Positions 7,580-37,645 of a stretch of 38,216 nt of DNA are shown here, in pieces (the stretch's first letter is position 1; each line of letters begins with the position of its first letter). Both the position numbers and the translations under genes were made by a program. The notes beneath the pieces were generated by a model. That model searched no databases and was not told where the DNA came from. It worked only from the letters and a program-made list of their open reading frames with translations. The stretch covers positions 1 to 38,216 of the forward strand of contig DHFM01000052.1 of the NCBI GenBank assembly GCA_002400405.1. The letters run 5' to 3'. The DNA comes from Candidatus Moranbacteria bacterium UBA4824 (lineage in GTDB: Bacteria; Patescibacteriota; Minisyncoccia; Moranbacterales; UBA2206).

Positions 7580-8862
7580 ATGTTTTTTGTTATTGCATCT
7601 CGAAACGCCGTCCCCGCAAATTTTCCCAAGGGGCAAAAAGTCGTGTTGTCGAGCGTCCATAAAATATCTTCGACCGCTGTTTTATCTCGATCGGAAATTT
7701 TTCCATCACGAAATCTTTTTGCGATTTCCCAAAGCCTGAAAGTTCCTTCTCGGCACGGCACGCATTTTCCGCAAGATTCTCGCCGAAAAAAATCTGTCCA
7801 AGAAATTAACAAGTCATGAATGTTGACACTTTTGTCCACCACTAAAATTGAGCCTGAACCCATTTGTACGGACAGGTCGCGACCTGTCCCTACACAAAAT
7901 TCCATTTTTGCTTTTAGCTCTTTTTCTAAGAGGAGTTTTCCACAAGCGCCACCAATTTGCGCAAACCAAAACTCTTTGCCTTTTTTTATCCCGCCAGCAT
8001 ATTGGTCAATTAATTTTCTCACATTAATTCCTGTTGGTGCTTCATATATTCCTGGTTTTGCCACAGCGCCACTCAAAATGAAAAGCTTTGTTCCAGGGGA
8101 ATTTTTTGAACCAATGCGCGCAAATCTTTCTCCACCATTAGAAATTATCCAGGGAATATTAGAAATTGTTTCTGTATTACTCACGGCAGTTGGACAACCA
8201 AAAAGTCCAGCCTCAGTTGGAAATGGCGGACGAATTTTTGGCTCTCCGCGATTACTTTCAATGGAATTTATCAGCGCCGTTTCCTCTCCGCAAATATATG
8301 CGCCAGCACCAGAATATATTTCAATTTCCAGATTATAATTTGAACCAAGGATATTTTCTCCCCAATATTTTTTTTCTTTCGCTTGCGAAATTGCAATTTC
8401 CAAAATTTCTTTTTGTTTTTCATAATTACCATTAATATAAATGTAGGCTTTTTTTGCTTCGATAGAAAGTGCAGAAATTATTATTCCCTCCAAGAGAAGA
8501 TGCGGATTATTATCCACTATCAATCTATCCTTATATGTCCCTGGTTCTGATTCTTCTAAGTTACAGATAAAATATTTTTTACCCTGTGGAGTATCCCGAC
8601 TTGTCGGGATAATTTTGTAATCAAAATTTACTCCACAGGGTGAATTCCTTGCCACCATCTCCAATTTATCCCCAGTTGGAAATCCCGCGCCTCCCCGCCC
8701 GCGAAGTCCAGATTTTTTAATCTCCAAAATAGCCTCCTCCGGATTCATTTTAAAAATAAATTTTTCCAAAGCCATGTATCCGCCAACACAAATATAATCC
8801 TCTATTCTTAGTGGATTAATCTTGCCCCAGTACTTTGTTAACACTTTTAAATTATCAGTCAC
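7567..8862 (-). CDS. NuoF/HydB/HoxF-like NADH-binding FMN and 4Fe-4S flavoprotein subunit
   Basis: 431 aa with a GTG start. Has GLRGRGGAGFPTG, CN.EESEPGTYKDR, GAGAYICGEETAL and ESCGKCVPCREG. Confidence 0.88.
   Translation of the reverse strand: MTDNLKVLTKYWGKINPLRIEDYICVGGYMALEKFIFKMNPEEAILEIKKSGLRGRGGAGFPTGDKLEMVARNSPCGVNFDYKIIPTSRDTPQGKKYFICNLEESEPGTYKDRLIVDNNPHLLLEGIIISALSIEAKKAYIYINGNYEKQKEILEIAISQAKEKKYWGENILGSNYNLEIEIYSGAGAYICGEETALINSIESNRGEPKIRPPFPTEAGLFGCPTAVSNTETISNIPWIISNGGERFARIGSKNSPGTKLFILSGAVAKPGIYEAPTGINVRKLIDQYAGGIKKGKEFWFAQIGGACGKLLLEKELKAKMEFCVGTGRDLSVQMGSGSILVVDKSVNIHDLLISWTDFFRRESCGKCVPCREGTFRLWEIAKRFRDGKISDRDKTAVEDILWTLDNTTFCPLGKFAGTAFRDAITKNILTF
8582..8640. repeat. palindromic element inserted in-frame in the nuoF-like gene
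   Basis: ccctgtggagta (8582-8593) pairs with tactccacaggg (8629-8640), with an inner atcccgac/gtcgggat hairpin. It encodes PCGVNFDYKIIPTSRDTPQG, an extra loop relative to E. coli NuoF between the GxGGAGF and CNADExEPG motifs. Confidence 0.6.
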
Positions 8863-8975
8863 TAATTTTCAATTACCAATTCTCAATTTACATTGAATTT
8901 TCAATTATCAATTTTCATTGGAAATTTAGTCATTGAAAATTGATTGAAAATTAGAAATTGAAAATTAGAAATTTA
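8863..8975. repeat. ATTGAAAA-type long hairpin element, copy C1 (fills the whole intercistronic spacer)
   Basis: aattttcaattaccaattctcaat ... attgaaaattgattgaaaattagaaattgaaaatt. About 90% identical by eye to 10311-10422. Confidence 0.7.
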
Positions 8976-9425
8976 TTAGATATATTCTCCCAATATCCCA
9001 TGCACTGAACTTTTTGTTACTCGCTCGTAAATCTTTCCGTTTACCACCATCACTGGGCCATCAGCACAACGACCAAGACAACTAATTTCTTCCAATTTAA
9101 ATTTCGAACTGGCCGAGCTACCTGCTTTTATTTTTAATAAATTTTCAACCTCAGAAATTATTGAAAAAGAATTATTCACGGTGCAGTTAGCTGAATTACA
9201 GATTTGAATTAGAATCTCCGGCTGTTTTTCAGTTTTAATTTCATCATAAAAACTAGTGGTTTCAAAAATCTTGCTTTCTGAAACATCAAAATATTCGGCT
9301 ATTATTTTAGCCTCTTTTTCGCCCACAAAACCAAAAATGGCGTTAGTTTTTTTTAACGCCGGTAAAATATTCTCGCTCTTAGGCTCGAACTCCAAGATTA
9401 TACTTTGTATTGTTTTTTGTTTCAT
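8976..9425 (-). CDS. NuoE/HydC/HoxE-like thioredoxin-like 2Fe-2S ferredoxin subunit
   Basis: 149 aa. Has ICNSANC (C-x4-C) and CLGRCADGPVMVVNG (C-x3-C). Confidence 0.8.
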   Translation of the reverse strand: MKQKTIQSIILEFEPKSENILPALKKTNAIFGFVGEKEAKIIAEYFDVSESKIFETTSFYDEIKTEKQPEILIQICNSANCTVNNSFSIISEVENLLKIKAGSSASSKFKLEEISCLGRCADGPVMVVNGKIYERVTKSSVHGILGEYI

Positions 9426-10310: not shown

Positions 10311-10422
10311 AATAATTTTCAATAACCAATTCTCAATTTACATTGAATTTTCATTTGTCAATTTTCATTGTAAATTTAGTCATTGAAAATTGATTGAAAA
10401 TTGTAAATTGAAAATTGAAAAT
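10311..10422. repeat. ATTGAAAA-type long hairpin element, copy C2 (fills the whole intercistronic spacer)
   Basis: Near-identical to C1. Bounded by the fba start and the tpiA stop. Confidence 0.7.
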
Positions 10423-11187
10423 TTATTTATCGTTTATTATTCCTGATATCTTTATGAATTCATACGGCACCAAACTTTCTCTACCAATCAACACACCATC
10501 CATTCCCGGATCCAAACAAGTTTGTTTAGCTGTCGAAGCTGAAACTGATCCACCATAAATTATTTTTACTTTTTCAGCATATTTAGTACCAAAAAGCCCA
10601 GTTAGAATTTTAAAAATCAAAACCCTAGCCTCCATCACTTCATTTGATTTAGGAATTTCATCCGTCCCCACTGACCAAATCGGCTCATAAGCAACAACTA
10701 AATTTTCTGCTTTTGCTCGACTGACTTTTTCCAAAGCTGATTTTACTTGCCGTGTAATAACGCTTAGTGTTTGATTATTTTCTTTTTCTGACTTAGACTC
10801 CCCCACGCAAAGGATTGGTTTCAAACCATTCTTGAGCGCTGAAATAACTTTCAAATTCACTTCTTCATCTCGCTCACAAAAATATCGCCTTCTTTCACTG
10901 TGTCCCAAAATCGCATAAGCACAGCCAAAATTCTTGAGCATTGATGGAGAAATTTCTCCGGTATAAGAACCTTTTTCTTCCCAAAACATATTTTGCGCCC
11001 CAAGAATTATTTTTTTTATCTTAGCTTTTTGGAATCCCGGTAAATGAATAGCTGGCGGACAAAGAATGAGCTCACAATTATTTATCTTTTTGCCAGTCAA
11101 TTCTTTTTTGAATAAATTCAAATATTGTTCTTGCTGGGCAGGAGACAAAATATTCATCTTTAAATTTCCTATAATTAGCTTGCTCAT
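10423..11187 (-). CDS. tpiA: triosephosphate isomerase
   Basis: 254 aa. Has GNLKMN, ILGHSERR, AYEPIWSVGT and YGGSV. Confidence 0.92.
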   Translation of the reverse strand: MSKLIIGNLKMNILSPAQQEQYLNLFKKELTGKKINNCELILCPPAIHLPGFQKAKIKKIILGAQNMFWEEKGSYTGEISPSMLKNFGCAYAILGHSERRRYFCERDEEVNLKVISALKNGLKPILCVGESKSEKENNQTLSVITRQVKSALEKVSRAKAENLVVAYEPIWSVGTDEIPKSNEVMEARVLIFKILTGLFGTKYAEKVKIIYGGSVSASTAKQTCLDPGMDGVLIGRESLVPYEFIKISGIINDK

Positions 11188-15739: not shown

Positions 15740-16381
15740 TTACATGTTATCTAAAATATTTTTAAACACCTCGTCAATTTCTTTATCGCCATCAATTTCA
15801 ATAACTTTACCTTGCTTATTATAATACTCAACAATTGGCATTGTTTCTTCGTTGAATATTGCCAATCTTTTTTTCACACCTTCCTCCGTATCATCAACAC
15901 GCTGAATTATCCGACCTCCACATATATCACATTTTTCGTCTTCACTTTGAATATCTTTTCCAAAAATAAAAACTTTTTTGCATTTTTCACAAATTCTTCT
16001 TTTAGAAATTCTTTTTAGCGATTCTTCTTGCGAAAGCTTAATTAGAATTACTTTATCAATTTTCCTGCCAGACTCCTTGACCACTTTTTCAAAATATTCA
16101 AGCTGTTCGATATTTCTCGGTACCCCGTCAAAAACAACTCCTTGCTCTCTTCCTAATCCCATAATTTTCAAATGAATCACTTCTCGCAGAATTTTGTCGC
16201 TCACTAATTCTTTTTTGATATTTATAATTTCATGAATTTCTTTTCCTAATTGAGTATCTAGAAGTGCCACCTCACGCAAAAACTTTCCCATATCAATATG
16301 TTCCAGATCAAATTTCTGCGCTAATTTTTCTGCCTGCGTTCCCTTGCCGGAACCTTGTGGACCAAGAATAATGATATTCAT
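15740..16381 (-). CDS. adk: adenylate kinase (zinc-lid type)
   Basis: Has GPQGSGKGTQ and the lid CxxC...CxxC (CEKCKK...CDICGG). The ATG at 16381 is preferred; the TTG at 16390 lies inside repeat C3. Confidence 0.95.
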   Translation of the reverse strand: MNIIILGPQGSGKGTQAEKLAQKFDLEHIDMGKFLREVALLDTQLGKEIHEIINIKKELVSDKILREVIHLKIMGLGREQGVVFDGVPRNIEQLEYFEKVVKESGRKIDKVILIKLSQEESLKRISKRRICEKCKKVFIFGKDIQSEDEKCDICGGRIIQRVDDTEEGVKKRLAIFNEETMPIVEYYNKQGKVIEIDGDKEIDEVFKNILDNM

Positions 16382-16487
16382 AATTTTCAATTTCTAATTT
16401 TCAATTTTCAAAAAATTTTCAATTACTAAATTTTAAAATTAAAAATTTATAAATTGATTGAAAATTGTGAATTGAAAATTAAAAATT
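16382..16487. repeat. ATTGAAAA-type hairpin element, diverged copy C3
   Basis: aattttcaatttctaattttcaattttc ... aaattgattgaaaattgtgaattgaaaattaaaaatt. The right half is close to C2. Confidence 0.55.
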
Positions 16488-17776: not shown

Positions 17777-17938
17777 GCCAATTTTGTCTGCGAACATAGT
17801 GAGCAGGAACAAAATTGAGCATCCCGCACCAATTCACAAACTAATTTTATATTATCTAAAAACTAAGCCGTAGGCGATTCCGTGAAATAATCATTATTTT
17901 ACAGTAAATCTAATTCGGAATTGGTGCGGGATAGCCCC
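17777..17938 (-). repeat. repeated ~160-nt leader element D1 with a 14-bp GC-rich TIR
   Basis: tcccgcaccaattc (17822-17835) pairs with gaattggtgcggga (17918-17931). It is homologous along its length to 37484-37645, including gctcaatttt and aaaattggcATG next to the start codon. Confidence 0.7.
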
Positions 17939-17941
17939 TTC

Positions 17942-18894: not shown

Positions 18895-18957
18895 AAAATT
18901 TTCAAATTTATAACAACTTATTTATTTCGTATTTCGCTTATTTCGTATTTCGTAAAA

Positions 18958-19305: not shown

Positions 19306-19313
19306 TGTTTTTC

Positions 19314-19382
19314 ATTTACGAAATTACTAATCGAGCGAAAATACGAATTCGTAATTTAGTTTAATTCGTACTTTCGTAAATT
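19314..19382. repeat. TACGAA/TTCGTA hairpin element B1 (fills the rplF-rplR spacer)
   Basis: atttacgaaa...cgaaaatacgaattcgta...attcgtactttcgtaaatt. Homologous to 36949-37015 and ends at the rplF stop codon. Confidence 0.65.
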
Positions 19383-19928
19383 TTACTTTACGGCGCCGGC
19401 TTTCTTACCGACTTTTCTTCTAACTTTCTCTCCTTGATATCTAAAACCTTTTCCTTTATATGGTTCAACTTTTTTTAATGCTCTGATATTAGCCGCGAAT
19501 TGTCCTACTTGTTGCTTATCTATTCCAGAGATTGAAAGGACATTATTATCTTCAATTTTAACCGTTAGTCCTTCCGGAATTTCCTCCTCCACTGGATGAG
19601 AAAAACCAAGAGCCATAACTAGTTTTTTGCCTTGCAAGGACATTCGAAATCCCACTCCCTGTAGTTCTAATTTCTTTTCGAAACCATCTTTGGCACCGAC
19701 AATCATATTGTTCACTAGTGCTCGAGTGAGACCCCAAATAGCATTAGCTTCCTTGGTATTTCTTGTGCGAGAAAATTTCATTTCTCCGTCAGTGACCTCT
19801 ACTTTGATTTGTCGACTAATTTCCAAATTCAAAGTGCCTTTTGGACCCTTGACTTCCAATTTTTCACCGTCGAGCTTGATCTCGATTCCTTGTGGTATAG
19901 CTATTATTTTTTTTCCGATCTTTGACAT
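19383..19928 (-). CDS. rplF: 50S ribosomal protein L6
   Basis: 181 aa. Has SKIGKK.I..P.G and a C-terminal EPYKGKG.RY.GE. Confidence 0.95.
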   Translation of the reverse strand: MSKIGKKIIAIPQGIEIKLDGEKLEVKGPKGTLNLEISRQIKVEVTDGEMKFSRTRNTKEANAIWGLTRALVNNMIVGAKDGFEKKLELQGVGFRMSLQGKKLVMALGFSHPVEEEIPEGLTVKIEDNNVLSISGIDKQQVGQFAANIRALKKVEPYKGKGFRYQGEKVRRKVGKKAGAVK

Positions 19929-20045
19929 AAATTTTCATTTACGAACTACGAAATTAGCGAAATACGAAATATTTTTTAATATATTTTCGTATTTAATTTT
20001 AATTTTCGTACTTTCGTATTTCGTATTATTTTCGTATTTCGTAAT
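19929..20045. repeat. TACGAA/TTCGTA-rich hairpin spacer (rpsH-rplF)
   Basis: tttacgaactacgaaattagcgaaatacgaaatat...atattttcgtattt...ttcgtatttcgtaatt. The arms are built from tandem cgtattt/tacgaaa units. Confidence 0.55.
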
Positions 20046-20438: not shown

Positions 20439-20474
20439 AGTTTATAGTTTGATGATTTTAAATTTATCTCTTTT

Positions 20475-20584
20475 CCTACGAATTACGAATCTGTACAAAT
20501 GTACTAATGTGAACTGAATAATTTTTACTGCTTTATTAAATTATTCGTAATTCGTACATTCGTAAATATTCGTAATTCGTAAGG
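20475..20584. repeat. 110-bp TACGAAT inverted-repeat element, copy A1
   Basis: cctacgaattacgaat...gtactaatgtgaa...attattcgtaattcgtacattcgta...attcgtaattcgtaagg. It ends 1 nt from the rpsZ stop codon. Confidence 0.8.
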
Positions 20585-20585
20585 A

Positions 20586-20771
20586 CTACCAACTTGCTTT
20601 TTTAACTCCAGGTATTTGTCCGGTAATAGCCAACTCTCTAAAACATATTCGGCAGATATCAAATTGTCTCATATATCCATGTTTTCTTCCGCACTTCCAA
20701 CAACGTCTCACGATTCTCGTCGAAAATTTAGGTTTTTTTCGGGCTCTTGCTTCTGTTGATTTCTTCGCCAT
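20586..20771 (-). CDS. rpsZ: 30S ribosomal protein S14 type Z (zinc-binding)
   Basis: 61 aa. Has CWKCGR...CRICFRE and a C-terminal SW. Confidence 0.93.
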
Positions 20772-20805
20772 ATTCTTTATCTACAATTAATAAACTTTAA
20801 ATAAA

Positions 20806-21351
20806 TTAACTTTTTATCTCCATTGGAAATCCCAATAATTTAACCAGTGCCAATCCTTTCGCTCTATCCTGTGCATCTGTGACTACTGTCACTTCTAGGC
20901 TGAAAGTATTCTTTACTTGTTCCGGCAAAATTTCTGGAAAAATCAATTGTTCTTTTATCCCGATATTCAAATTACCACTTGCATCAACAGCTGAAGTTTT
21001 CAAACCATGAAAATCTTTCACGCGAGGAAGGGCAGCTTTGACTAATCTTTCGATAAAACTCCACATTCTTTTCCCTCGCAAAGTCACTTTCATTCCGATT
21101 TCTAATCCTTCTCTTGTTTTGAATCCAGCAATTGATTTTTTTGCTTTAGTCGGTAATGGTTTTTGCCCAGTAATGACAGTGAGAGTTTTCGCAATATCTT
21201 CAACTTGAGCAGAATCTTTCAAAAATTTTCCTATTCCAACATTAACCACGACTTTCTTTATCTTTGGCACTTCGAAATCATTGGAAAGATTAAGCTCTTT
21301 TTTCATTTTTTCCACTATTTCTTTTTTGTACTTTTCGCGAATACTAGTCAT
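20806..21351 (-). CDS. rplE: 50S ribosomal protein L5
   Basis: 181 aa. L5 blocks and position. Confidence 0.95.
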   Translation of the reverse strand: MTSIREKYKKEIVEKMKKELNLSNDFEVPKIKKVVVNVGIGKFLKDSAQVEDIAKTLTVITGQKPLPTKAKKSIAGFKTREGLEIGMKVTLRGKRMWSFIERLVKAALPRVKDFHGLKTSAVDASGNLNIGIKEQLIFPEILPEQVKNTFSLEVTVVTDAQDRAKGLALVKLLGFPMEIKS

Positions 21352-21371
21352 GGTATTTCTCTAAATATTTA

Positions 21372-21677
21372 TTATATTTCTCCTTGGCATTTTTTACAAA
21401 CTCTTTGCTTTTTTCCAGCTACTATCTTATATCCTATTCTGGTAGGTTTAGCACATTTTGGGCAAATCAGCATAACATTAGAAATTTGAACTCTTCTTGG
21501 CACTTCGATTCTTTGTCCTTTCTCTCCTTGTTTTCTTGGTTTAGAATGTTTTTTTACGATATTCAAACCTTCCACCACAACTTTTCCATCTTGCGGAACC
21601 GCCTGCAAAACTTTCCCGGTTTTTCCGGAGTCCTTGCCTGCGAGCATTTTTACTAAATCATTTTTCTTTATCTTCAT
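21372..21677 (-). CDS. rplX: 50S ribosomal protein L24
   Basis: 101 aa. Has KGD.V....GKD.GK.G.V with a KOW motif and a C-terminal CxxC...CxxC. Confidence 0.93.
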   Translation of the reverse strand: MKIKKNDLVKMLAGKDSGKTGKVLQAVPQDGKVVVEGLNIVKKHSKPRKQGEKGQRIEVPRRVQISNVMLICPKCAKPTRIGYKIVAGKKQRVCKKCQGEI

Positions 21678-21685
21678 AATAATAT

Positions 21686-21753
21686 CACAGAATTACACAG
21701 AAACCTTACGGAACGACACTGAATTTTTTCTGTGTTGCTCTGTCTTATTCTGT
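21686..21753. repeat. CACAGAA-type hairpin in the rplN-rplX spacer
   Basis: cacagaattacacagaaa (21686-21703) versus tttctgtgttgctctgtcttattctgt (21727-21753). The architecture matches the other spacers but uses a different oligomer unit. Confidence 0.5.
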
Positions 21754-21766
21754 ATCTTTTTGTGTT

Positions 21767-22132
21767 TTATAATACTTCTGGCGCGAGAGAAATTATCTTG
21801 CTAAATCCTTTGTCTCTAATTTCTCTGGCAATCGGTCCAAAAATTCTGGTCCCTTTTGGTTCTTTGTTTTCCAAAATCACTGCGGCATTTTCATCAAATC
21901 TGATGTATGATCCATCTTTTCTTCTAAATTCTTTTCTTTGTCTAACAATCACGGCTCGCACCTTATCCCCTTTTTTTACCATGCCTCTCGGCTCAGCAGT
22001 TTTCACTGAAGCTACAATAATGTCACCAATGCTAGCAAAGCGTCTTCTCGTTCCGCCTAAAACCTTAAAGCATTGAATCATTTTTGCTCCACTATTATCA
22101 GCTACTTTCAATTTTGTTTGAGCTTGTATCAT
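21767..22132 (-). CDS. rplN: 50S ribosomal protein L14
   Basis: 121 aa. Starts [13 protein letters not shown]. Confidence 0.96.
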
Positions 22133-22136
22133 ATTC

Positions 22137-22385
22137 TTAAACTACTTTATATTTTTTATCCTTACTTATTGGTCGGCAAGCAATTATTTCCACCGTATCA
22201 CCAATTTTGCATTTATTTTCTTCATCATGAGCCTTATATCTCTTGGTTGATTTATATTTTTTCTGATATTTTTTATGAGTTTTGAATATATCCACAGCAA
22301 TAATAGCGGTCTTATTACCCTTATCGCTGACTACCACACCTTTCTTTTTGGCTAATATTTTATTGTTATTTGAATTATTTTCCAT
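22137..22385 (-). CDS. rpsQ: 30S ribosomal protein S17
   Basis: 82 aa. Has G.VVSDK..KT..V.V and YK.HDE.N. Confidence 0.92.
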
Positions 22386-22393
22386 TTTCTTTA

Positions 22394-22576
22394 TTATTTT
22401 TCACTAATTAAAGTATTTATACGAGCAATGTCTTTTTTTTCACCTCTCAGCTCGCGAGTGTTTTTCACTTGCTTGACTGCAATATCAAATCTAAGCTTTC
22501 TGACTTTTTCTTGTTTTTCTGAAAGCATTTTTTTCAACTCTTCAATATTTTTTTCTCGTAATTCTTTAATTTTCAT
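22394..22576 (-). CDS. rpmC: 50S ribosomal protein L29
   Basis: MKIKELREK start at 22576, 1 nt after the rplP stop. The longer call to 22594 overlaps rplP. Confidence 0.9.
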   Translation of the reverse strand: MKIKELREKNIEELKKMLSEKQEKVRKLRFDIAVKQVKNTRELRGEKKDIARINTLISEK

Positions 22577-22577
22577 A

Positions 22578-22988
22578 TTATTCTTTTTCAACAAATTTAG
22601 TCTTTACATTTAATTTATAAGCTGCGAGTCGCATCGCTTCCTTAGCAATTTCTCTTTTTACGCCATCCATTTCAAATAATATCGTTCCTGGTTTTACCAC
22701 TGCCACAAAATGATCCACTGCGCCTTTACCTTTACCCATTGGGGTTTCATCACCTTTTTTTGTCATTGGCTTATCAGGAAAAATTCTAATCCAAATTTTT
22801 CCTCCGCGCTGGACAGATCTTGTCATAGCTCGTCTAGAAGCCTCTATTTGACGCGCTGTGACTAAGCTTGCCCCCATAGCTTTCAAACCAAAACTGCCAA
22901 AACTAATCTCGTTACCGCGATGAGCTGTTCCGCGAATTTTCCCTCCGCGTTGGATCTTTCTGTGTTTTACTTTTTTTGGCATCAACAT
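22578..22988 (-). CDS. rplP: 50S ribosomal protein L16
   Basis: 136 aa. Starts MLMPKK.K.RK. Confidence 0.95.
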
Positions 22989-22998
22989 AATAATTTAT

Positions 22999-23109
22999 CT
23001 TACGAATTACGAATTCTTACGAATGTACTAATGTGAGTTAAAAATAATTTTTGTATTTTATTAAATTATTCGTAATTCGTACATTCGTACTGATTCGTAA
23101 TTCGTAAGG
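22999..23109. repeat. 110-bp TACGAAT inverted-repeat element, copy A2
   Basis: Identical by eye over about 110 bp to 27357-27468. It ends 1 nt from the rpsC stop codon. Confidence 0.85.
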
Positions 23110-23110
23110 A

Positions 23111-23755
23111 TTACTCAAATACTTCTCCTTTATACAACCAAACTTTCACTCCTAATGTTCCATATGTCGTATAGGCCGTCGCTCGGGAAAAATCGATATC
23201 GCATCGCATAGTATGCAGTGGTAATGTTCCCTTAGCTGACCATTCTCTACGACTCATTTCCGCTCCGCCCAATCTTCCAGACATTTCAATTTTCACTCCT
23301 TTGATATTCTTATTTTTCATTACTTGTTCCAAAGCTGATTTCATAGCTTTTCGGAAAGGCAATCTTTTTTCTAATTGATCAGCAATGTTTTGCGCCATAA
23401 TTGCAGCGCTCTCTTCCATATTCTTAACTTCGACAATATCCACTTTCAAATTCATATTCTTATTGCCTTTGAAAAAATTCTTTTGAATATAACTCTTAAT
23501 ATCTTCGATGCCACTACCACCGCGTCCGATTAGCACTCCCGGTCTGGCAGTTTTGATGATTACTCGAATCATTTTGGCTGATCTTTCTATTTCTACTTCA
23601 GATATAAAAGCCGCTTTCCATTTTTTGGAAACTCCACCTCTAATTTCAATATCTTGCTTGAGGTTCTTTGTATATTCTCTTTTACTAAACCATTTAGATT
23701 TCCAGTCTTGAGTTATCCCCATCCGGAATCCAATTGGATTTACTTTATGTCCCAT
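23111..23755 (-). CDS. rpsC: 30S ribosomal protein S3
   Basis: 214 aa. Starts MGHKVNPIGFR, with KH domain blocks. Confidence 0.96.
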   Translation of the reverse strand: MGHKVNPIGFRMGITQDWKSKWFSKREYTKNLKQDIEIRGGVSKKWKAAFISEVEIERSAKMIRVIIKTARPGVLIGRGGSGIEDIKSYIQKNFFKGNKNMNLKVDIVEVKNMEESAAIMAQNIADQLEKRLPFRKAMKSALEQVMKNKNIKGVKIEMSGRLGGAEMSRREWSAKGTLPLHTMRCDIDFSRATAYTTYGTLGVKVWLYKGEVFE

Positions 23756-23790
23756 GCTAATTTAATTTTATATGCTTTAGTTAACTATTT

Positions 23791-23903
23791 CCTTACGAAT
23801 TACGAATTTTTACGAATGTACTAATGTGAATTGAATAATCTTTTGCTGTTTTATTAAATTATTCGTAATTCGTACATTCGTACCGATTCGTAATTCGTAA
23901 GAG
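23791..23903. repeat. 110-bp TACGAAT inverted-repeat element, copy A3
   Basis: ccttacgaattacgaatttttacgaatgtac...gtacattcgtaccgattcgtaattcgtaag. It ends about 4 nt from the rplV stop codon. Confidence 0.8.
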
Positions 23904-23907
23904 TTAT

Positions 23908-24450
23908 TTACATTGACTTTCTTTGGAATATTTTTTTTGCCCAACCCTTATTAGGGGTTTCTTTTTTGGCACGCTCTTCAATTTTATTATTTCCTTCGGT
24001 CTTTTTTTCTGGGTCGCTCTGTTTCTCCTCTGCCTCTTTCTGCTCTTTCTTTCTTTCTTTTTCTCTTTTTTTCATTTCCGCTTCCATTTCTTCTTTAGTT
24101 TTTCTATTCTTTCCTTCCACTCTTTCTTCTAGAATAATTTCTATCTTGGAGGTTCTTTTGAGAATTTCACCAGCTCGTCCGAAGGCTTTCGGCATCCAAC
24201 GTTTCATTGTCGGTCCTGCTCCAACTCTGGCATCATATACATACAGATTATTCTTATCCAAACCAAAATTATTTTCTGAATTAGCGATTGCACTTAAGAG
24301 CAACTTTTTCATATGCGGACTAGTTCTTTTCACATGCACATCAAGCTGATCAAGCGCTTCCAAGACATCCAAACCTTTGATCAAATCAGCCACTAATTTT
24401 GACTTTCTTGGAGCGATTCTTAAATTGTTTAATTTTGCATTAACTTTCAT
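23908..24450 (-). CDS. rplV: 50S ribosomal protein L22 with a ~70-aa K/E-rich C-terminal extension
   Basis: The first ~110 aa carry the L22 core (ISPRK-like, RA.GRA..I.KRTSHI.-like). The tail is low-complexity Lys/Glu. Confidence 0.9.
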   Translation of the reverse strand: MKVNAKLNNLRIAPRKSKLVADLIKGLDVLEALDQLDVHVKRTSPHMKKLLLSAIANSENNFGLDKNNLYVYDARVGAGPTMKRWMPKAFGRAGEILKRTSKIEIILEERVEGKNRKTKEEMEAEMKKREKERKKEQKEAEEKQSDPEKKTEGNNKIEERAKKETPNKGWAKKIFQRKSM

Positions 24451-24461
24451 AATTGTTGAAA

Positions 24462-24803
24462 TTATTTCTTGGTATCAGTTGAAGCCTTAGCCGCTTTAGC
24501 CGCATCTAATTCTTTTTGTTTAGCAGCTGTTTCCAATTCTTTTTGCATCTTTCCTCCGTGTCTTACAAATTTCTTAGTTGGAGAAAATTCTCCTAATTTG
24601 TGTCCTACCATTTCTTCAGAAACCAAAACAGGAATATGAATTTTTCCATTATGCACACCAAAAGTAAAACCAATCATTTCCGGAGAAATTACACAGGCGC
24701 GAGACCAAGTCTTGATCGCTGTTCGATCACCCGGTTTCTTATCTTTAATTTTCTTGATAAGCCTCTCGTCAATATAAAGGCCTTTCTTTAAACTTCTTGT
24801 CAT
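24462..24803 (-). CDS. rpsS: 30S ribosomal protein S19 (with a short A/K-rich C-terminal tail)
   Basis: Has SLKKG.Y, the GHKLGEF..T block and position. Confidence 0.95.
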
Positions 24804-25637
24804 TTATTTTCTCTTAGATCTTCTTTTGATTATGAATTTATTGCTATATTTCTTCTTCTTTCTGGTTTTTTTACCAAGAGCTATCTTACCCCATGGAGTT
24901 TTTGGATGTTTGAGCCCAATTCCTTGTCGGCCTTCACCTCCACCATGTGGATGATCAACTGGATTCATAGCGCTACCTCGCACTCCTGGTCTCACTCCCA
25001 TATGTCTTTTTCTTCCAGCTTTTCCAATGTTAACAGAATTATGTTCAAAATTACTTACTTGACCGATAGTAGCATAGCATTCACTACTTATCAAGCGAAT
25101 TTCTCCAGAGGACATTTTCACTTGAGCAGTTTTTTGATCTATGGCAGTAAGAGTTGCACCTGTTCCGGCACTTCTGGCTATTTGTCCACCACGACCGGAA
25201 AAAAGTTCCAAATTGGAAACAACTGTTCCGATAGGAATATTTTTCACCTTAGCACGATTACCAATTTTTATTGGGGCATCTTCCTGAGAAATTATTTTTT
25301 GATCAATAGCCAAACCTTCCGGTGCTAACACATATCTTTTCTCTCCATCGGCATAAATTACAAGAGCGATAAAAGCACTTCTGACAGGATCTTTTTCAAT
25401 TGAAGCCACTCGCCCCCAAATGCCAAATTTGTCTTGCATGAAATCAACTTTGCGATATCTTTGTTTCGCTCCGCCACCTTGATGACGCACAGAAATTTTT
25501 CCTCCCGATCTTCCAGCTTTTTTGGTCATTTTTGCCAAAAGAGACTTCTCCGGTTTTCGGTCGGTTATCATAGAAGACTTCACAATAGACATGTTTCTTC
25601 TACCAGCTGTATTTCGTTTATAAATTTTAATCGCCAT
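24804..25637 (-). CDS. rplB: 50S ribosomal protein L2
   Basis: 277 aa. Has G.RN..G.I..RH.GGG and MNPVDHPHGGGEG. Confidence 0.97.
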   Translation of the reverse strand: MAIKIYKRNTAGRRNMSIVKSSMITDRKPEKSLLAKMTKKAGRSGGKISVRHQGGGAKQRYRKVDFMQDKFGIWGRVASIEKDPVRSAFIALVIYADGEKRYVLAPEGLAIDQKIISQEDAPIKIGNRAKVKNIPIGTVVSNLELFSGRGGQIARSAGTGATLTAIDQKTAQVKMSSGEIRLISSECYATIGQVSNFEHNSVNIGKAGRKRHMGVRPGVRGSAMNPVDHPHGGGEGRQGIGLKHPKTPWGKIALGKKTRKKKKYSNKFIIKRRSKRK

Positions 25638-25661
25638 ATTGGTTCGAGTTATCTCTCTAAA

Positions 25662-25937
25662 TTATTTTCCTCCAAAAACATCAATACTTTCTCCTTTTTT
25701 TACTTTTACAATTGCTTTTCGGTAGCCTGATTTAGTTCCAAGCACTCTGCCTCTAAGTCTTTTTTTGCTAGGAACATTAATTGTTCTGACAGTTATCACT
25801 TTTACTTTATATAATTCTTCAACTGATTTTTTAATTTGAATCTTAGTTGCTTTTTTAGCCACCTTGAAAATATATTTATTCTGCTCTCCCGCTGTTGTCG
25901 CCGCTTCAGTTATCCATGGTTCAATGAGTATTGTCAT
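25662..25937 (-). CDS. rplW: 50S ribosomal protein L23
   Basis: 91 aa. Has F.V...A.K..IK..VE.L..VKV; position is between rplD and rplB. Confidence 0.9.
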   Translation of the reverse strand: MTILIEPWITEAATTAGEQNKYIFKVAKKATKIQIKKSVEELYKVKVITVRTINVPSKKRLRGRVLGTKSGYRKAIVKVKKGESIDVFGGK

Positions 25938-25946
25938 TTTTTTCTA

Positions 25947-26573
25947 TTACTTATTATACTTTTCTTCTAAATATTTAACGCTGTCTTTTGACATTAATAA
26001 AAATTTATTCTTAAGCATTTCTAAAACATTCAATTGGCTAATCAGGATATTTTCTACTTTTTTGATATTTCGACTGGCAATTCTCAAATCTTTTTCAGCC
26101 GTTGAAAAAGCCATCAAAGTTTTTCCGCTTATTTTCAAGTTTTTCAGCGTCTGCGCCATTACCTTAGTTTTCTTATCTTTCAAATCAAATTTATCCAAAA
26201 TCATAATTTCATTGTCCTTAAGTTTTCCACTCAGCACCATCAGGATTGCCTTGGCATTCATTTTCTTGTTGATTTTTTTAGTAAAATTTCGATCGCTTCT
26301 TGGTCCGAAAGCCACTCCACCTTTTTTCCAAGCGGGATTTCGCACTGATCCTACTCGTGCTCGGCCTGTTCCTTTTTGTTTCCATGGTTTGATTCCCGAA
26401 CCAGCTCGGTCTCCTCGATTTTTTGTATGAGCCAAAACTTGTCTTTGATTTGATTGAATCGCCACCATTGCCTGATGGATAAGAACATCATTTTTCTTCA
26501 CTCCAAAAACAGCTTCGGATAAATCCATTTTCTCCACTTCCTGACCGGCTATATTGTAAACAGAAATTTTCAT
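25947..26573 (-). CDS. rplD: 50S ribosomal protein L4
   Basis: 208 aa. Has the KPWKQKGTGRAR block. Confidence 0.95.
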   Translation of the reverse strand: MKISVYNIAGQEVEKMDLSEAVFGVKKNDVLIHQAMVAIQSNQRQVLAHTKNRGDRAGSGIKPWKQKGTGRARVGSVRNPAWKKGGVAFGPRSDRNFTKKINKKMNAKAILMVLSGKLKDNEIMILDKFDLKDKKTKVMAQTLKNLKISGKTLMAFSTAEKDLRIASRNIKKVENILISQLNVLEMLKNKFLLMSKDSVKYLEEKYNK

Positions 26574-26581
26574 AATTGTTG

Positions 26582-27142
26582 TTATTTAACGCTGGCTATT
26601 TCCACCACTCGTCCCATTACTCCTGGAACTGGGCCTTCAAGTCCTAAAATATTTTTTTCTTTATCTATAAAAACAATCTTAATATTCTTACTTGTGACTC
26701 TTTTGCCTCCCATTCTTCCTGCCATTCTTTTGCCCTTAACCACATGTTCAGGAAATCCAGAGCCAATCGCACCAGGAGCTCGAAGATCATGCTTGTGTCC
26801 GTGAGTCTTAGGCGATCCACCAAAACCATGTCTCTTTACTACGCCTTGAAAACCTTTCGCCTTGCCTAATCCACTTATCTTTACTTTGTCGCCAATTTCA
26901 AAAATCGAAACATCCAGCACAGCGCCTTCTTCTAGTTTTATCTCCTCTACTCGGAATTCTTTTTTGAATTTCTTGTTCTTAGTTTTATCTATTTCCAATT
27001 GAACCGCTTGATACCCATTTTTTTCTTTATTTCTAATCAAACTAACTTTTGAAGCACATTCAACCAGCGTCACATTTTGCGCACCCTCTTCGCCGTAAAG
27101 CGTTGTCATACCTAATTTTTTTCCTAATATAAATTTATTCAT
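26582..27142 (-). CDS. rplC: 50S ribosomal protein L3
   Basis: 186 aa. Has G.K.GMT, KG.GFQG..KRH.F and GR.GG. Confidence 0.93.
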   Translation of the reverse strand: MNKFILGKKLGMTTLYGEEGAQNVTLVECASKVSLIRNKEKNGYQAVQLEIDKTKNKKFKKEFRVEEIKLEEGAVLDVSIFEIGDKVKISGLGKAKGFQGVVKRHGFGGSPKTHGHKHDLRAPGAIGSGFPEHVVKGKRMAGRMGGKRVTSKNIKIVFIDKEKNILGLEGPVPGVMGRVVEIASVK

Positions 27143-27356
27143 CTTTTTTTAAAAATAAAAACTGGTTTATTACCAGCCAAAACTCCTCGGGGAGTTTATA
27201 GAAATTTCTTTCTTGGCTAGTTGAGTATCTCGCCTGCCTAATTTTCCTATCTTATTATATATCCTCAACTGTTTGGGTCAGATAATCATTATTCTTAGTT
27301 GGGGAAAAATATAACAAAGTAAGAAAATTTGGCAGGTACAGACTTTAACTAGAATT

Positions 27357-27468
27357 CCTTACGAATTACGAATTCTTACGAATGTACTAATGTGAGTTAA
27401 AAATAATTTTTGTATTTTATTAAATTATTCGTAATTCGTACATTCGTACTGATTCGTAATTCGTAAGG
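27357..27468. repeat. 110-bp TACGAAT inverted-repeat element, copy A4
   Basis: Identical by eye to A2. It ends 2 nt from the rpsJ stop codon. Confidence 0.85.
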
Positions 27469-27797: not shown

Positions 27798-27880
27798 TTA
27801 GTTTTTAATATAATCTATTAATTATGCTTTATAAAGCTCGCCTCATATAAATTTTAGAGACGAGCTCTGAAAGCAAACGA

Positions 27881-36913: not shown

Positions 36914-36948
36914 ATAATTTGATTTTTACTTTCTTAATTTTATTTATA

Positions 36949-37015
36949 ATTTACGAATATACGAATTAAACGAAAATACGAATTCGTACTTTCGCCAGAT
37001 TCGTACTTTCGTAAA
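36949..37015. repeat. TACGAA/TTCGTA hairpin element B2 (rpsG-fusA spacer)
   Basis: Homologous to 19314-19382, sharing cgaaaatacgaattcgta and the terminal attcgtactttcgtaaa. It ends at the rpsG stop codon. Confidence 0.65.
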
Positions 37016-37483
37016 TTAAGCGAAGTGTGCAAAGGCCTTATTAGCATCAGCCATTCGGTGAACATCTTCTCGTTTTTTCATAGCTCCACCAATTTTATTT
37101 GAAGCGTCGATTAGTTCATCGGCTAATTTTTCTGCCATTTTCTTGCCTTTTTTCGCATTAATAGCGGCTTTGAGCCAGCGAATAGCTAGAGTTGTTCTTC
37201 TATCTCCCGCAACTGGCACCGGTACCTGATAGTTAGCGCCTCCTACTCTTCGAGATTTTAGTTCAACTAGAGGAGAAACATTTTTGATAGCTTGTTCAAA
37301 GATATTCAAACCGCCTTTTTTTGTTCTTTCATGAATGATATCAAAAGAATCATACATTATTTTTTCGGCGATAGTTTTTTTGCCACTTTCCATAATACTC
37401 ACCATAAATTTACCCACGAGCATATTATTATACCTTGGGTCTGGTTTAGTATTTTTTTGATAAACTCTTTTTCTTCTTGCCAT
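37016..37483 (-). CDS. rpsG: 30S ribosomal protein S7
   Basis: MARRKRV start at 37483. The 19 upstream codons of the ORF call lie in repeat D2. Confidence 0.95.
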   Translation of the reverse strand: MARRKRVYQKNTKPDPRYNNMLVGKFMVSIMESGKKTIAEKIMYDSFDIIHERTKKGGLNIFEQAIKNVSPLVELKSRRVGGANYQVPVPVAGDRRTTLAIRWLKAAINAKKGKKMAEKLADELIDASNKIGGAMKKREDVHRMADANKAFAHFA

Positions 37484-37645
37484 GCCAATTTTTCCTGCGA
37501 GCGATAGCGAGTAGCTGAAAAATTGAGCACCCCGCACCAATTCGCATATGAAATTAATGTGTATTTATAATTTAAGCCGTTAGGCGAATCCGCGCGTAAT
37601 TCTTTCTGTAATATAAATTTAAGTCGGAATTTGGTGCGGGGTCAC
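37484..37645 (-). repeat. repeated ~160-nt leader element D2 with a GC-rich TIR
   Basis: ccccgcaccaattc (37530-37543) pairs with gaatttggtgcgggg (37627-37641, 1-nt bulge). Homologous to 17777-17938. Confidence 0.7.

Follow-up and report, generated by a model that had tools for sequence, protein, structure and literature searches.

Hairpin elements behind stop codons in a ribosomal-protein operon of Candidatus Moranbacteria: probable gene-less members of a GxxExxY nuclease cassette family

Why should a ribosomal-protein operon carry four copies of one ~110-nt inverted repeat, each beginning just past a stop codon? This question is raised by contig DHFM01000052.1 of Candidatus Moranbacteria bacterium UBA4824, the 38,216-nt stretch analyzed here as the window (contig C58 of the genome that we call G000; 0.98 Mb, 35% G+C, 77 contigs), in which an initial annotation made from the sequence alone had noticed an element with TACGAAT words, hereafter T1. 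That annotation compared the element with a miniature transposable element bearing inverted repeats (MITE) and, alternatively, with a dedicated RNA structure between the genes of the operon. Our best explanation, which we hold to be probable together with the mechanism proposed below, is that all four are non-autonomous members, lacking the gene, of a cassette family built around a ~130-residue GxxExxY (PF13366/TIGR04256) nuclease; this cassette family is apparently undescribed.

Every gene in this region is encoded on the minus strand, which is the mRNA sense, and the identities of EF-Tu, S10, L3, L22, S3, L16, type-Z S14, S8, L6 and L18 were confirmed; outside the window, gene calls are our own longest open reading frames (ORFs). 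The repeat finder returned a single direct-repeat family of four members (20474-20584, 22999-23109, 23792-23902 and 27358-27468) and, together with reading of the sequence, bore out four copies of 110-113 nt seated 1-4 nt past stop codons, as initially annotated. Copy A1 begins 1 nt past the stop of rpsZ (TAG), A2 1 nt past that of rpsC, A3 4 nt past that of rplV and A4 2 nt past that of rpsJ (TAA in these three), leaving 36, 10, 35 and 214 nt, respectively, before the next start (Table 1). The claimed identity of A2 and A4 held at 111 of 111 nt (100%); A3 is 89% identical to both, while A1 carries an indel that lowers its ungapped identity to 60%, BLAST giving ~91% to A3. The exact match of A2 and A4 rests on the assembly, and the assembler may have smoothed a few differences, with the A4 sequence recurring at 111/112 positions in an independent metagenome-assembled genome (MAG), G007. 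According to the repeat finder, the arms are 34-35 nt long, 88-89% complementary and 42 nt apart; they consist of TACGAAT heptamers laid out as 2 + NNN + 2-3 words and form a stem of ~50 bp in an AT-rich element whose coding content amounts to a 7-codon ORF remnant. Computational folding of the minus strand predicts stable hairpins with energies between -40.0 and -43.4 kcal/mol and z between -8.5 and -10.8, none of 200 shuffles folding as well.

Very stable stems directly after genes could divide the operon into sections, as intrinsic terminators or attenuators, and a promoter-like site and a separate leader do follow A4 before rplC. However, no U-tract follows any of the four copies (T-runs were sought on either strand), in agreement with the initial annotation, and terminator prediction called none of them terminator-like; the copies also stand upstream of essential co-directional genes, only 10-36 nt from the next start, and over the whole genome hairpins are about as common at co-directional (15%) and divergent (11%) gene pairs as at convergent pairs (20%). 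With U-tracts absent and no enrichment at convergent pairs, we rejected a role as intrinsic terminators, which we regard as highly improbable. Rfam gave no match across the whole window at the gathering score, and a tRNA scan of the window was empty.

The connection to a gene comes from loci in which arms of the same kind frame an ORF. In locus L137 (Moraniibacteriota), a gene-bearing T1 cassette lies between rpsG and fusA and reads, in order, rpsG stop, GATT, CTCTACGAATTACGAATTTGTACGAATGTACGAA, a 133-residue PF13366 ORF (88.7 bits), TTCGTACATTCGTACAAATTCGTAATTCGTAGA, 6 nt and the fusA ATG. This ORF starts at an ATG inside the 5' arm, formed by the third word plus G, and when the window copies are aligned to L137, 29-35 of 31-40 nt agree in the 5' arm and 25/27 to 35/39 nt in the 3' arm. 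PF13366 genes are present in all nine genomes of the genus. G000 has two GxxExxY genes, at C52:13178-13564 and C24:1611-2024 (TIGR04256, 136 bits), each framed by ~45-nt inverted arms of CACTGATTA words and wedged between neighboring genes; in G002, one such gene (L049) is framed by TACGAA arms like those of the T2 palindrome of the window and another by arms with the word TACAAAT; and in G007 the arms of locus L058 have the T1 layout with TACTAAT as the word, matching inverted arm hits being found at the same flanking positions in G003 and G002 (L057, L061). Among gene-bearing cassettes, all five checked (L137, L049, L058, C52 and C24) are co-oriented with their host neighbors. Two features that a gene-less GxxExxY cassette should have are thus found in T1, namely homologous arms in the 2 + NNN + 2 layout and co-oriented lodging between stop and start. 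In addition, C43:5912-6073 of G000 is a gene-less hairpin with CACTGATTA-type arms like those of the C52 and C24 genes, and because it carries these arms, the CACTGATTA word family also has miniatures.

The nuclease itself shows invariant residues in the GxxExxY and D...ExK motifs in a six-row alignment, and its predicted structure (predicted local distance difference test, pLDDT, 86.7) confirms a PD-(D/E)XK nuclease fold at the level of a model. The neighbors retrieved by fold search, comprising Cas4 SSO0001, lambda-type exonucleases, Hjc and a tRNA-splicing endonuclease, are generic PD-(D/E)XK matches only, with template-modeling (TM) scores of ~0.35-0.53, and a sequence search of the nuclease against PDB gave no meaningful hit. 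Protein identity amounts to 47-52% among the proteins with TAC-word arms vs. 29% to those with CACTGATTA arms. This correlation of protein similarity with arm word suggests that the nuclease may recognize or cut its own word arrays. Our literature search found the name GxxExxY rarely mentioned and nothing on such cassettes.

If T1 is a mobile insert, its occupancy should differ between related operons. All eight congeneric genomes have T1 matches (2-48 per genome), as do 24 of 41 relatives, and the orthologous operon was read in the congeners G001, G007 and G008. Comparison of orthologous spacers, which the initial annotation had proposed, showed presence and absence to differ junction by junction. 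The rpsZ-rpsH junction, filled by A1 in G000, is empty in G001 and G007 (15 nt each) and is occupied in G008 by the same insertion minus its 3' arm; rpsC-rplP, the site of A2, has a degenerate T1 of TACTAAT words in the same 122-nt spacer in G001, is empty in G007 (30 nt) and measures 80 nt in G008. T1 is found at rplV-rpsC in both G000 (A3) and G001, in degenerate form in G007 (the spacer measures 75 nt in G008), and at rpsJ-rplC in G000 (A4) and G007, where G008 has a hairpin like T3 of the window and the G001 contig ends. Two further junctions hold T1 in G008: rplC-rplD, which is empty in G000 (8 nt) and G007 (5 nt), the G001 contig ending before it, and rpsQ-rplN, which is empty in G000 (4 nt) and G001 (6 nt) and in G007 contains a hairpin of GCTAAT words. 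All four species have an insert at rplN-rplX, but it comes from three different word families, ACAGAAT in G000 and G001 (~91% identical), GCTAAT in G007 and TACGAAA in G008, while rpsH-rplF has T3 in G000, half a T1 in G001, 17 nt without insert in G007 and a TACAAAA-word hairpin in G008. In total, about four junctions are occupied in G007 and at least 13 in G008. These data reflect gain, loss and replacement, not a fixed feature of the operon.

Replacement can be followed at the A2 site, where the elements of G000 and G001 are identical at only 63/109 positions while A2 equals A4. Probably a copy of the A4 type took the place of the resident element at this site, using the homology of the arms; alternatively, the element was re-inserted. 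The identity of A2 and A4 points to recent copying or conversion. Apart from the operon, G007:C20 (locus L040, 1621-1703 and 2404-2486) has two 79-nt T1 hairpins lacking the center on either side of one gene of a secretion-type cluster; both begin 2-4 nt past a stop and leave 8-9 nt to the following ATG.

In contrast to this turnover, copies that are retained have hardly changed. Besides the 111/112 match at the A4 site between G000 and G007, where rpsJ is 90.2% identical overall and 70.6% at third positions (tuf third positions, 73%), the A3 element is identical at 109/113 positions between G000 and G001, and its 35-nt tail to rpsC at 33/35, with rpsC at 92.6% overall and 79% at third positions; the C66 copy is identical at 110/112 between G000 and G007, with flanking genes at 88.6% and 77.3% overall and 76% and 58% at third positions. 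At these three orthologous sites, element identity of 96.5-99% vs. 58-79% at flanking third codon positions (binomial P under third-position rates, 1e-7 to 4e-13) argues for constraint. The copies group by site rather than by genome, and at the A4 site divergence resumes directly at the element borders, which makes concerted evolution, locus transfer and assembly smoothing unlikely explanations. The genomes of the relatives come from independent studies. When 29 copies are aligned, hardly any variation is seen in the arms, in contrast to the 3 x 3 internal loop and the apical region. Conservation is higher in paired than in unpaired columns (P = 0.0013), and Watson-Crick pairs account for 699 of 725 stem cells. 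Judged from these sequence comparisons, constraint on the resident copies, at the RNA or DNA level, is real. The strand under selection was sought from G·U vs. A·C mismatches, but the counts (16 vs. 9) were uninformative.

Such constraint brings back the second proposal of the initial annotation, in that the copies might be RNA structures through which the host regulates its ribosomal-protein operon (a processing site, a 3'-end stabilizer or a translational uncoupler), recruited and kept for that role. In favor of this are the three orthologous sites, 5-25 times less diverged than neighboring third codon positions, the conservation of paired positions above all others, the presence of an RNase III gene (rnc) in G000 and the finding that, out of 749 co-directional junctions, 22 contain four of the seven full T1 copies of the genome (P = 2.4e-5). 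However, a dedicated structure of this operon is hard to reconcile with empty orthologous junctions (rpsZ-rpsH in G001 and G007, rpsC-rplP in G007, and others filled only in G008), with unrelated word families at one junction across species, with half-deleted copies, and with T1 next to unrelated, non-ribosomal genes and in another phylum, the Bacteroidota. Nor did specificity for the operon hold, as exemplified by T1 copies outside it and by 153 intergenic hairpins across the genome. We therefore consider a host RNA structure unlikely, although the constraint on the copies that are kept remains.

The pattern of conservation also allows for a different reading, whereby a sequence-specific protein, for instance a regulator or nucleoid protein, binds the word arrays as DNA or RNA, and hairpin potential is a by-product of the inverted order of the sites. 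Variation is almost absent from the words and unrestricted in the 3-nt spacers that separate them; arms of 4-5 perfect words are retained even where they stand alone; at rpsZ-rpsH of G008, the 5' arm is almost unchanged (~42/44 nt, counted by hand and not from a tool alignment) despite loss of the 3' arm; and whole arrays change their word in concert, e.g. from TACGAAT to TACTAAT on both arms. On the other hand, the neighboring genes have no common function, the arrays sit from stop to start inside operons and not at promoters, and the only protein consistently linked to them is the cassette's own nuclease, which fits the cassette explanation better than a host regulator. Binding sites of a host protein seem to us still less probable than a host RNA structure.

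Is the nearness to stop codons a targeting preference? Genome-wide, a preference for stop-proximal positions, to which the initial annotation had tied its proposal, is present. In G000, co-directional spacers are bimodal in length (35% at ≤20 nt and 39% at 61-200 nt), and among those of 50-260 nt, 110 of 343 contain a strong hairpin, with median distances of 5 nt to the stop and 12 nt to the start; for TACGAA-type hairpins of the whole genome, the medians are ~1 nt and ~10 nt, respectively. Filled sites typically read stop, 1-2 nt, CCTTACG...CGTAAGG, 8-10 nt, ATG. Much of this proximity can follow from insertion into spacers of a few nucleotides, with ~8-10 nt kept free and unstructured before the next start. 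As for polarity, about ten insertion events face one way relative to host transcription and two (C22 and C66) the other, with orthologues counted once; an attempt to use the arms to orient the element with respect to the nuclease gene was dropped, the arms being too symmetric and the center not aligning to the ORF ends. We also rejected sequestration of a Shine-Dalgarno (SD) sequence by the terminal TAAGG, given SD-like motifs at background level and T2 and T3 families that end in CGTAAA. Over the whole of G000, SD-like motifs at -20 to -4 of starts occur in 15.6% vs. a background of 13.4%, and translation initiation in this genome is apparently largely SD-independent.

How far, then, does the likening to a MITE carry? 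Size (110-113 nt), absence of coding capacity, 34-35-nt terminal arms, dispersal as seven full copies plus solo arms, filled vs. empty junctions among congeners and gene-bearing relatives with shared arms all agree with it, whereas a target-site duplication is missing; L137, with such arms around a PF13366 nuclease ORF, may represent the autonomous parent that a MITE should have. The following observations weigh against T1 as a mobile derivative of the cassettes: 1) no target-site duplication was seen at six filled/empty comparisons and no direct repeat flanks the 29 aligned copies, nor was there any constant target sequence at these six comparisons; 2) the partner gene encodes a PF13366 PD-(D/E)XK protein, not a known transposase, and we know of no activity of GxxExxY proteins on these arms; 3) the T1 center does not align to the ends of the L137 nuclease ORF; 4) no nuclease gene with TACGAAT arms is found in G000, and T1 is therefore an orphan there, so that the identity of A2 and A4 may be due to ordinary recombination; 5) the strong conservation of resident copies is contrary to what a purely selfish, decaying insert predicts. 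Our explanation of T1 as gene-less nuclease cassettes, which we still judge probable, would work as follows. Cassettes and their miniatures would settle in operons behind a stop, a few to a few tens of nucleotides before the next start, and be transcribed with the host genes, the cassette depending on host transcription. The nuclease would act on the word arrays and drive copying, for the most part into sites where arms, and with them homology, are already present. At the mRNA level, looping-out of the insert by the ~50-bp stem would keep the upstream stop and downstream start close to each other, with little disturbance to the expression of an essential operon; the long duplex would also be a plausible substrate for RNase III. 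We postulate that selection then holds the resident copies as a clean, autonomous fold or binding site.

Beyond the genus, the exact T1 arm (TACGAATTACGAATNNNTACGAATGTAC) was scanned across 185,579 species genomes and found in at least 117 stretches, the hosts among the matches listed being Moranbacteria, Parcubacteria, Falkow-, Uhr-, Sungii- and Doudnabacteria, Paceibacterales and many Bacteroidota MAGs. Two of the loci depart from the usual arrangement. In L071 (3421-3660; Bacteroidetes MAG JADKFA010000044), the T1 arm module forms a head-to-tail tandem of at least four 60-nt units instead of an inverted pair, and L095 is a nested element, with T1 arms around an inner pair of GCTAAT-word arms.

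T1 is one of several hairpin families in G000. Inverted repeats with at least 16 matched bases number 223 in this genome vs. ~9 in a shuffled genome, the intergenic ones accounting for the 153 given above, and the arms are tandem short words, of 7 nt in most families (TACGAAT, TACGAAA, AATTTTC, AATTTTT, CATGAAA, GTAGGAA, ACAGAAT and CACTGATTA). The full T1 copies comprise the four in the window and those at C41:5085, C22:1845 and C66:9925, in addition to about ten solo arms. Five of the latter (C52:10344-10384, C68:33659-33702, C68:64087-64121, C57:1457-1490 and C67:12835-12868) have 4-5 perfect TACGAAT words without a partner, several lying 2-5 nt from a start codon, and their preservation exceeds what is expected of decaying half-elements. 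Within the window, five other spacers hold hairpins, palindromes or solo arms of these word families (Table 1).

Table 1. T1 copies and other word-family repeats of the window, with positions in the 38,216-nt stretch
Feature	Positions	Strand	Setting	Arms	Folding energy (kcal/mol)	Remarks
T1 copy A1	20475..20584	-	after rpsZ stop TAG 20586-20588, before rpsH	20477-20508 + 20550-20583	-40.0	
T1 copy A2	22999..23109	-	after rpsC stop TAA 23111-23113, before rplP start			
T1 copy A3	23791..23903	-	after rplV stop TAA 23908-23910, before rpsC	23792-23825 + 23868-23901	-42.8	
T1 copy A4	27357..27468	-	after rpsJ stop TAA 27471-27473	27357-27391 + 27434-27468	-43.4	z = -10.8
T3 hairpin, TACGAAA/TACGAAC words	19938..20043	-	fills rpsH-rplF spacer			1 nt after stop, 10 nt before start
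T2 palindrome, 62-75 nt (TTTACGAAA-TACGAAT...GAATTC...)	19311..19385	-	rplF-rplR spacer			second copy 36947-37018
Solo arm, TTTCGTA words	18919..18956	-	rplR-rpsE spacer			
ACAGAAT-word hairpin	21678..21766	-	fills rplN-rplX spacer		-23.4	
AATTTTC-word hairpin	16381..16487	-	secY-adk spacer			further copies 8862-8977, 10313-10427

Other features of the operon were observed alongside these elements. A more G+C-rich hairpin of 129 nt (17813-17941; -46.5 kcal/mol, 48 pairs) fills the rplO-secY spacer and has a 55-nt repeat (76% identical) in common with 37504-37558, and the tuf-rpsJ spacer (27798-27880), with an 18-bp hairpin of -25.5 kcal/mol, is 96% identical between G000 and G007, the flanking genes being ~90% identical. 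The rpsJ-rplC spacer measures 328 nt; the remainder beside A4 (27143-27356, minus strand) has a promoter-like CTGACC-16-TATAAT at 27281-27254 and a leader that ends in a terminator-like hairpin and T-run (27178-27160) just before rplC. The core of this leader recurs in G007 and G008, G000 having an extra insert of ~100 nt, and it could be a ribosomal-protein autoregulatory leader or attenuator, with no match in Rfam. Two ribosomal proteins are only partly covered by their models: the L22 ORF (rplV, 23908-24450) encodes 180 residues, of which the bacterial L22 model spans only 5-106, the C-terminal tail of ~70 residues matching weakly a model named 'L22/unknown domain fusion'; and of the 186 residues of the L3 ORF (rplC, 26582-27142), the L3 model covers only 54-182, with its own positions 71-201, so that the N-terminal third is either divergent or shortened.

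Among the closest known counterparts are the Correia repeat enclosed elements of Neisseria, which are MITEs co-transcribed into mRNA, with hairpins that RNase III can bind or cut (PMC2649163; reviewed in PMC10969869 and PMC2229807). T1 resembles them in a length of ~100-150 bp, in terminal inverted repeats around a core that varies, in the many copies scattered between genes, in insertion polymorphism and presumably in co-transcription with neighboring genes. In contrast, T1 has no sequence similarity to them, has arms of 7-nt words, shows no TA (or any) duplication, shares its arms with a gene for a ~130-residue PD-(D/E)XK nuclease, not a transposase, and is lodged tightly from stop to start in operons. 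The enterobacterial repetitive intergenic consensus (ERIC) or intergenic repeat units (IRU) are reportedly imperfect palindromes of ~127 bp in transcribed intergenic regions of enterobacterial operons, which are said to be present or absent at orthologous sites and yet unexpectedly conserved between species, and to be able to affect mRNA decay. They are unrelated to T1 in sequence and host range, and have neither a heptamer-word architecture nor a known gene-bearing parent. Repetitive extragenic palindromes (REPs) and the bacterial interspersed mosaic elements (BIMEs) that they form are GC-rich palindromes of 20-40 nt, often a few nucleotides past stops, that are linked to REP-associated tyrosine transposases (RAYTs), enzymes of the HUH Y1 type; REPs within 15 nt of a stop codon have reportedly been found to affect translation. 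Like T1, these are extragenic palindromes near stops with a dedicated nuclease-type gene tied to its own repeats; T1 differs in being 110 nt long and AT-rich, with a 50-bp stem and a PD-(D/E)XK link, and no search aimed at RAYT genes was made. Finally, the intervening sequences (IVSs) of 23S rRNA, e.g. that of Coxiella burnetii, are selfish inserts with a long stem and sometimes a small ORF, removed from the RNA by RNase III (PMC4990558). T1 shares with IVSs a long terminal stem and residence inside a highly expressed transcript, but lies between protein-coding genes and not in rRNA, where IVSs occupy helix 25 or 45 of the 23S molecule. A direct link to rRNA IVSs was pursued and dropped: there is no 23S or large-subunit (LSU) rRNA in this MAG, and rRNA is likewise absent from 18 Bacteroidota loci that have T1 arms.

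On a wider view, we propose tentatively, at somewhat less than even chances, that GxxExxY cassettes and gene-less hairpins together represent an undescribed class of operon-dwelling mobile elements common to Patescibacteria and Bacteroidota, which might be called intercistronic intervening sequences. Such elements would enter highly expressed operons right after stop codons, be co-transcribed, and then be selected to remain near-unchanged, since the ~50-bp stem or nuclease-bound word array would need precise recognition, whether by being looped out, cut by RNase III or the element's own nuclease, or bound, thereby sparing the expression of essential neighbors.

Genomes of the candidate phyla radiation, at ~1 Mb, have few recognized mobile elements; in the one described here, about a third of the operon spacers of 50-260 nt hold hairpin inserts, which reach even the most highly expressed, essential operon. 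The elements show an unusual mix of turnover at junctions and near-frozen retained copies, and a hairpin 1-2 nt past the stop may be how an insert is tolerated, or even required, in tightly packed operons. For those who annotate such genomes or run comparative-genomics pipelines on them, conserved 'leaders' can be copies of a repeat. In addition, a very large family annotated only as 'PD-(D/E)XK nuclease superfamily' gains a testable role through the GxxExxY link.

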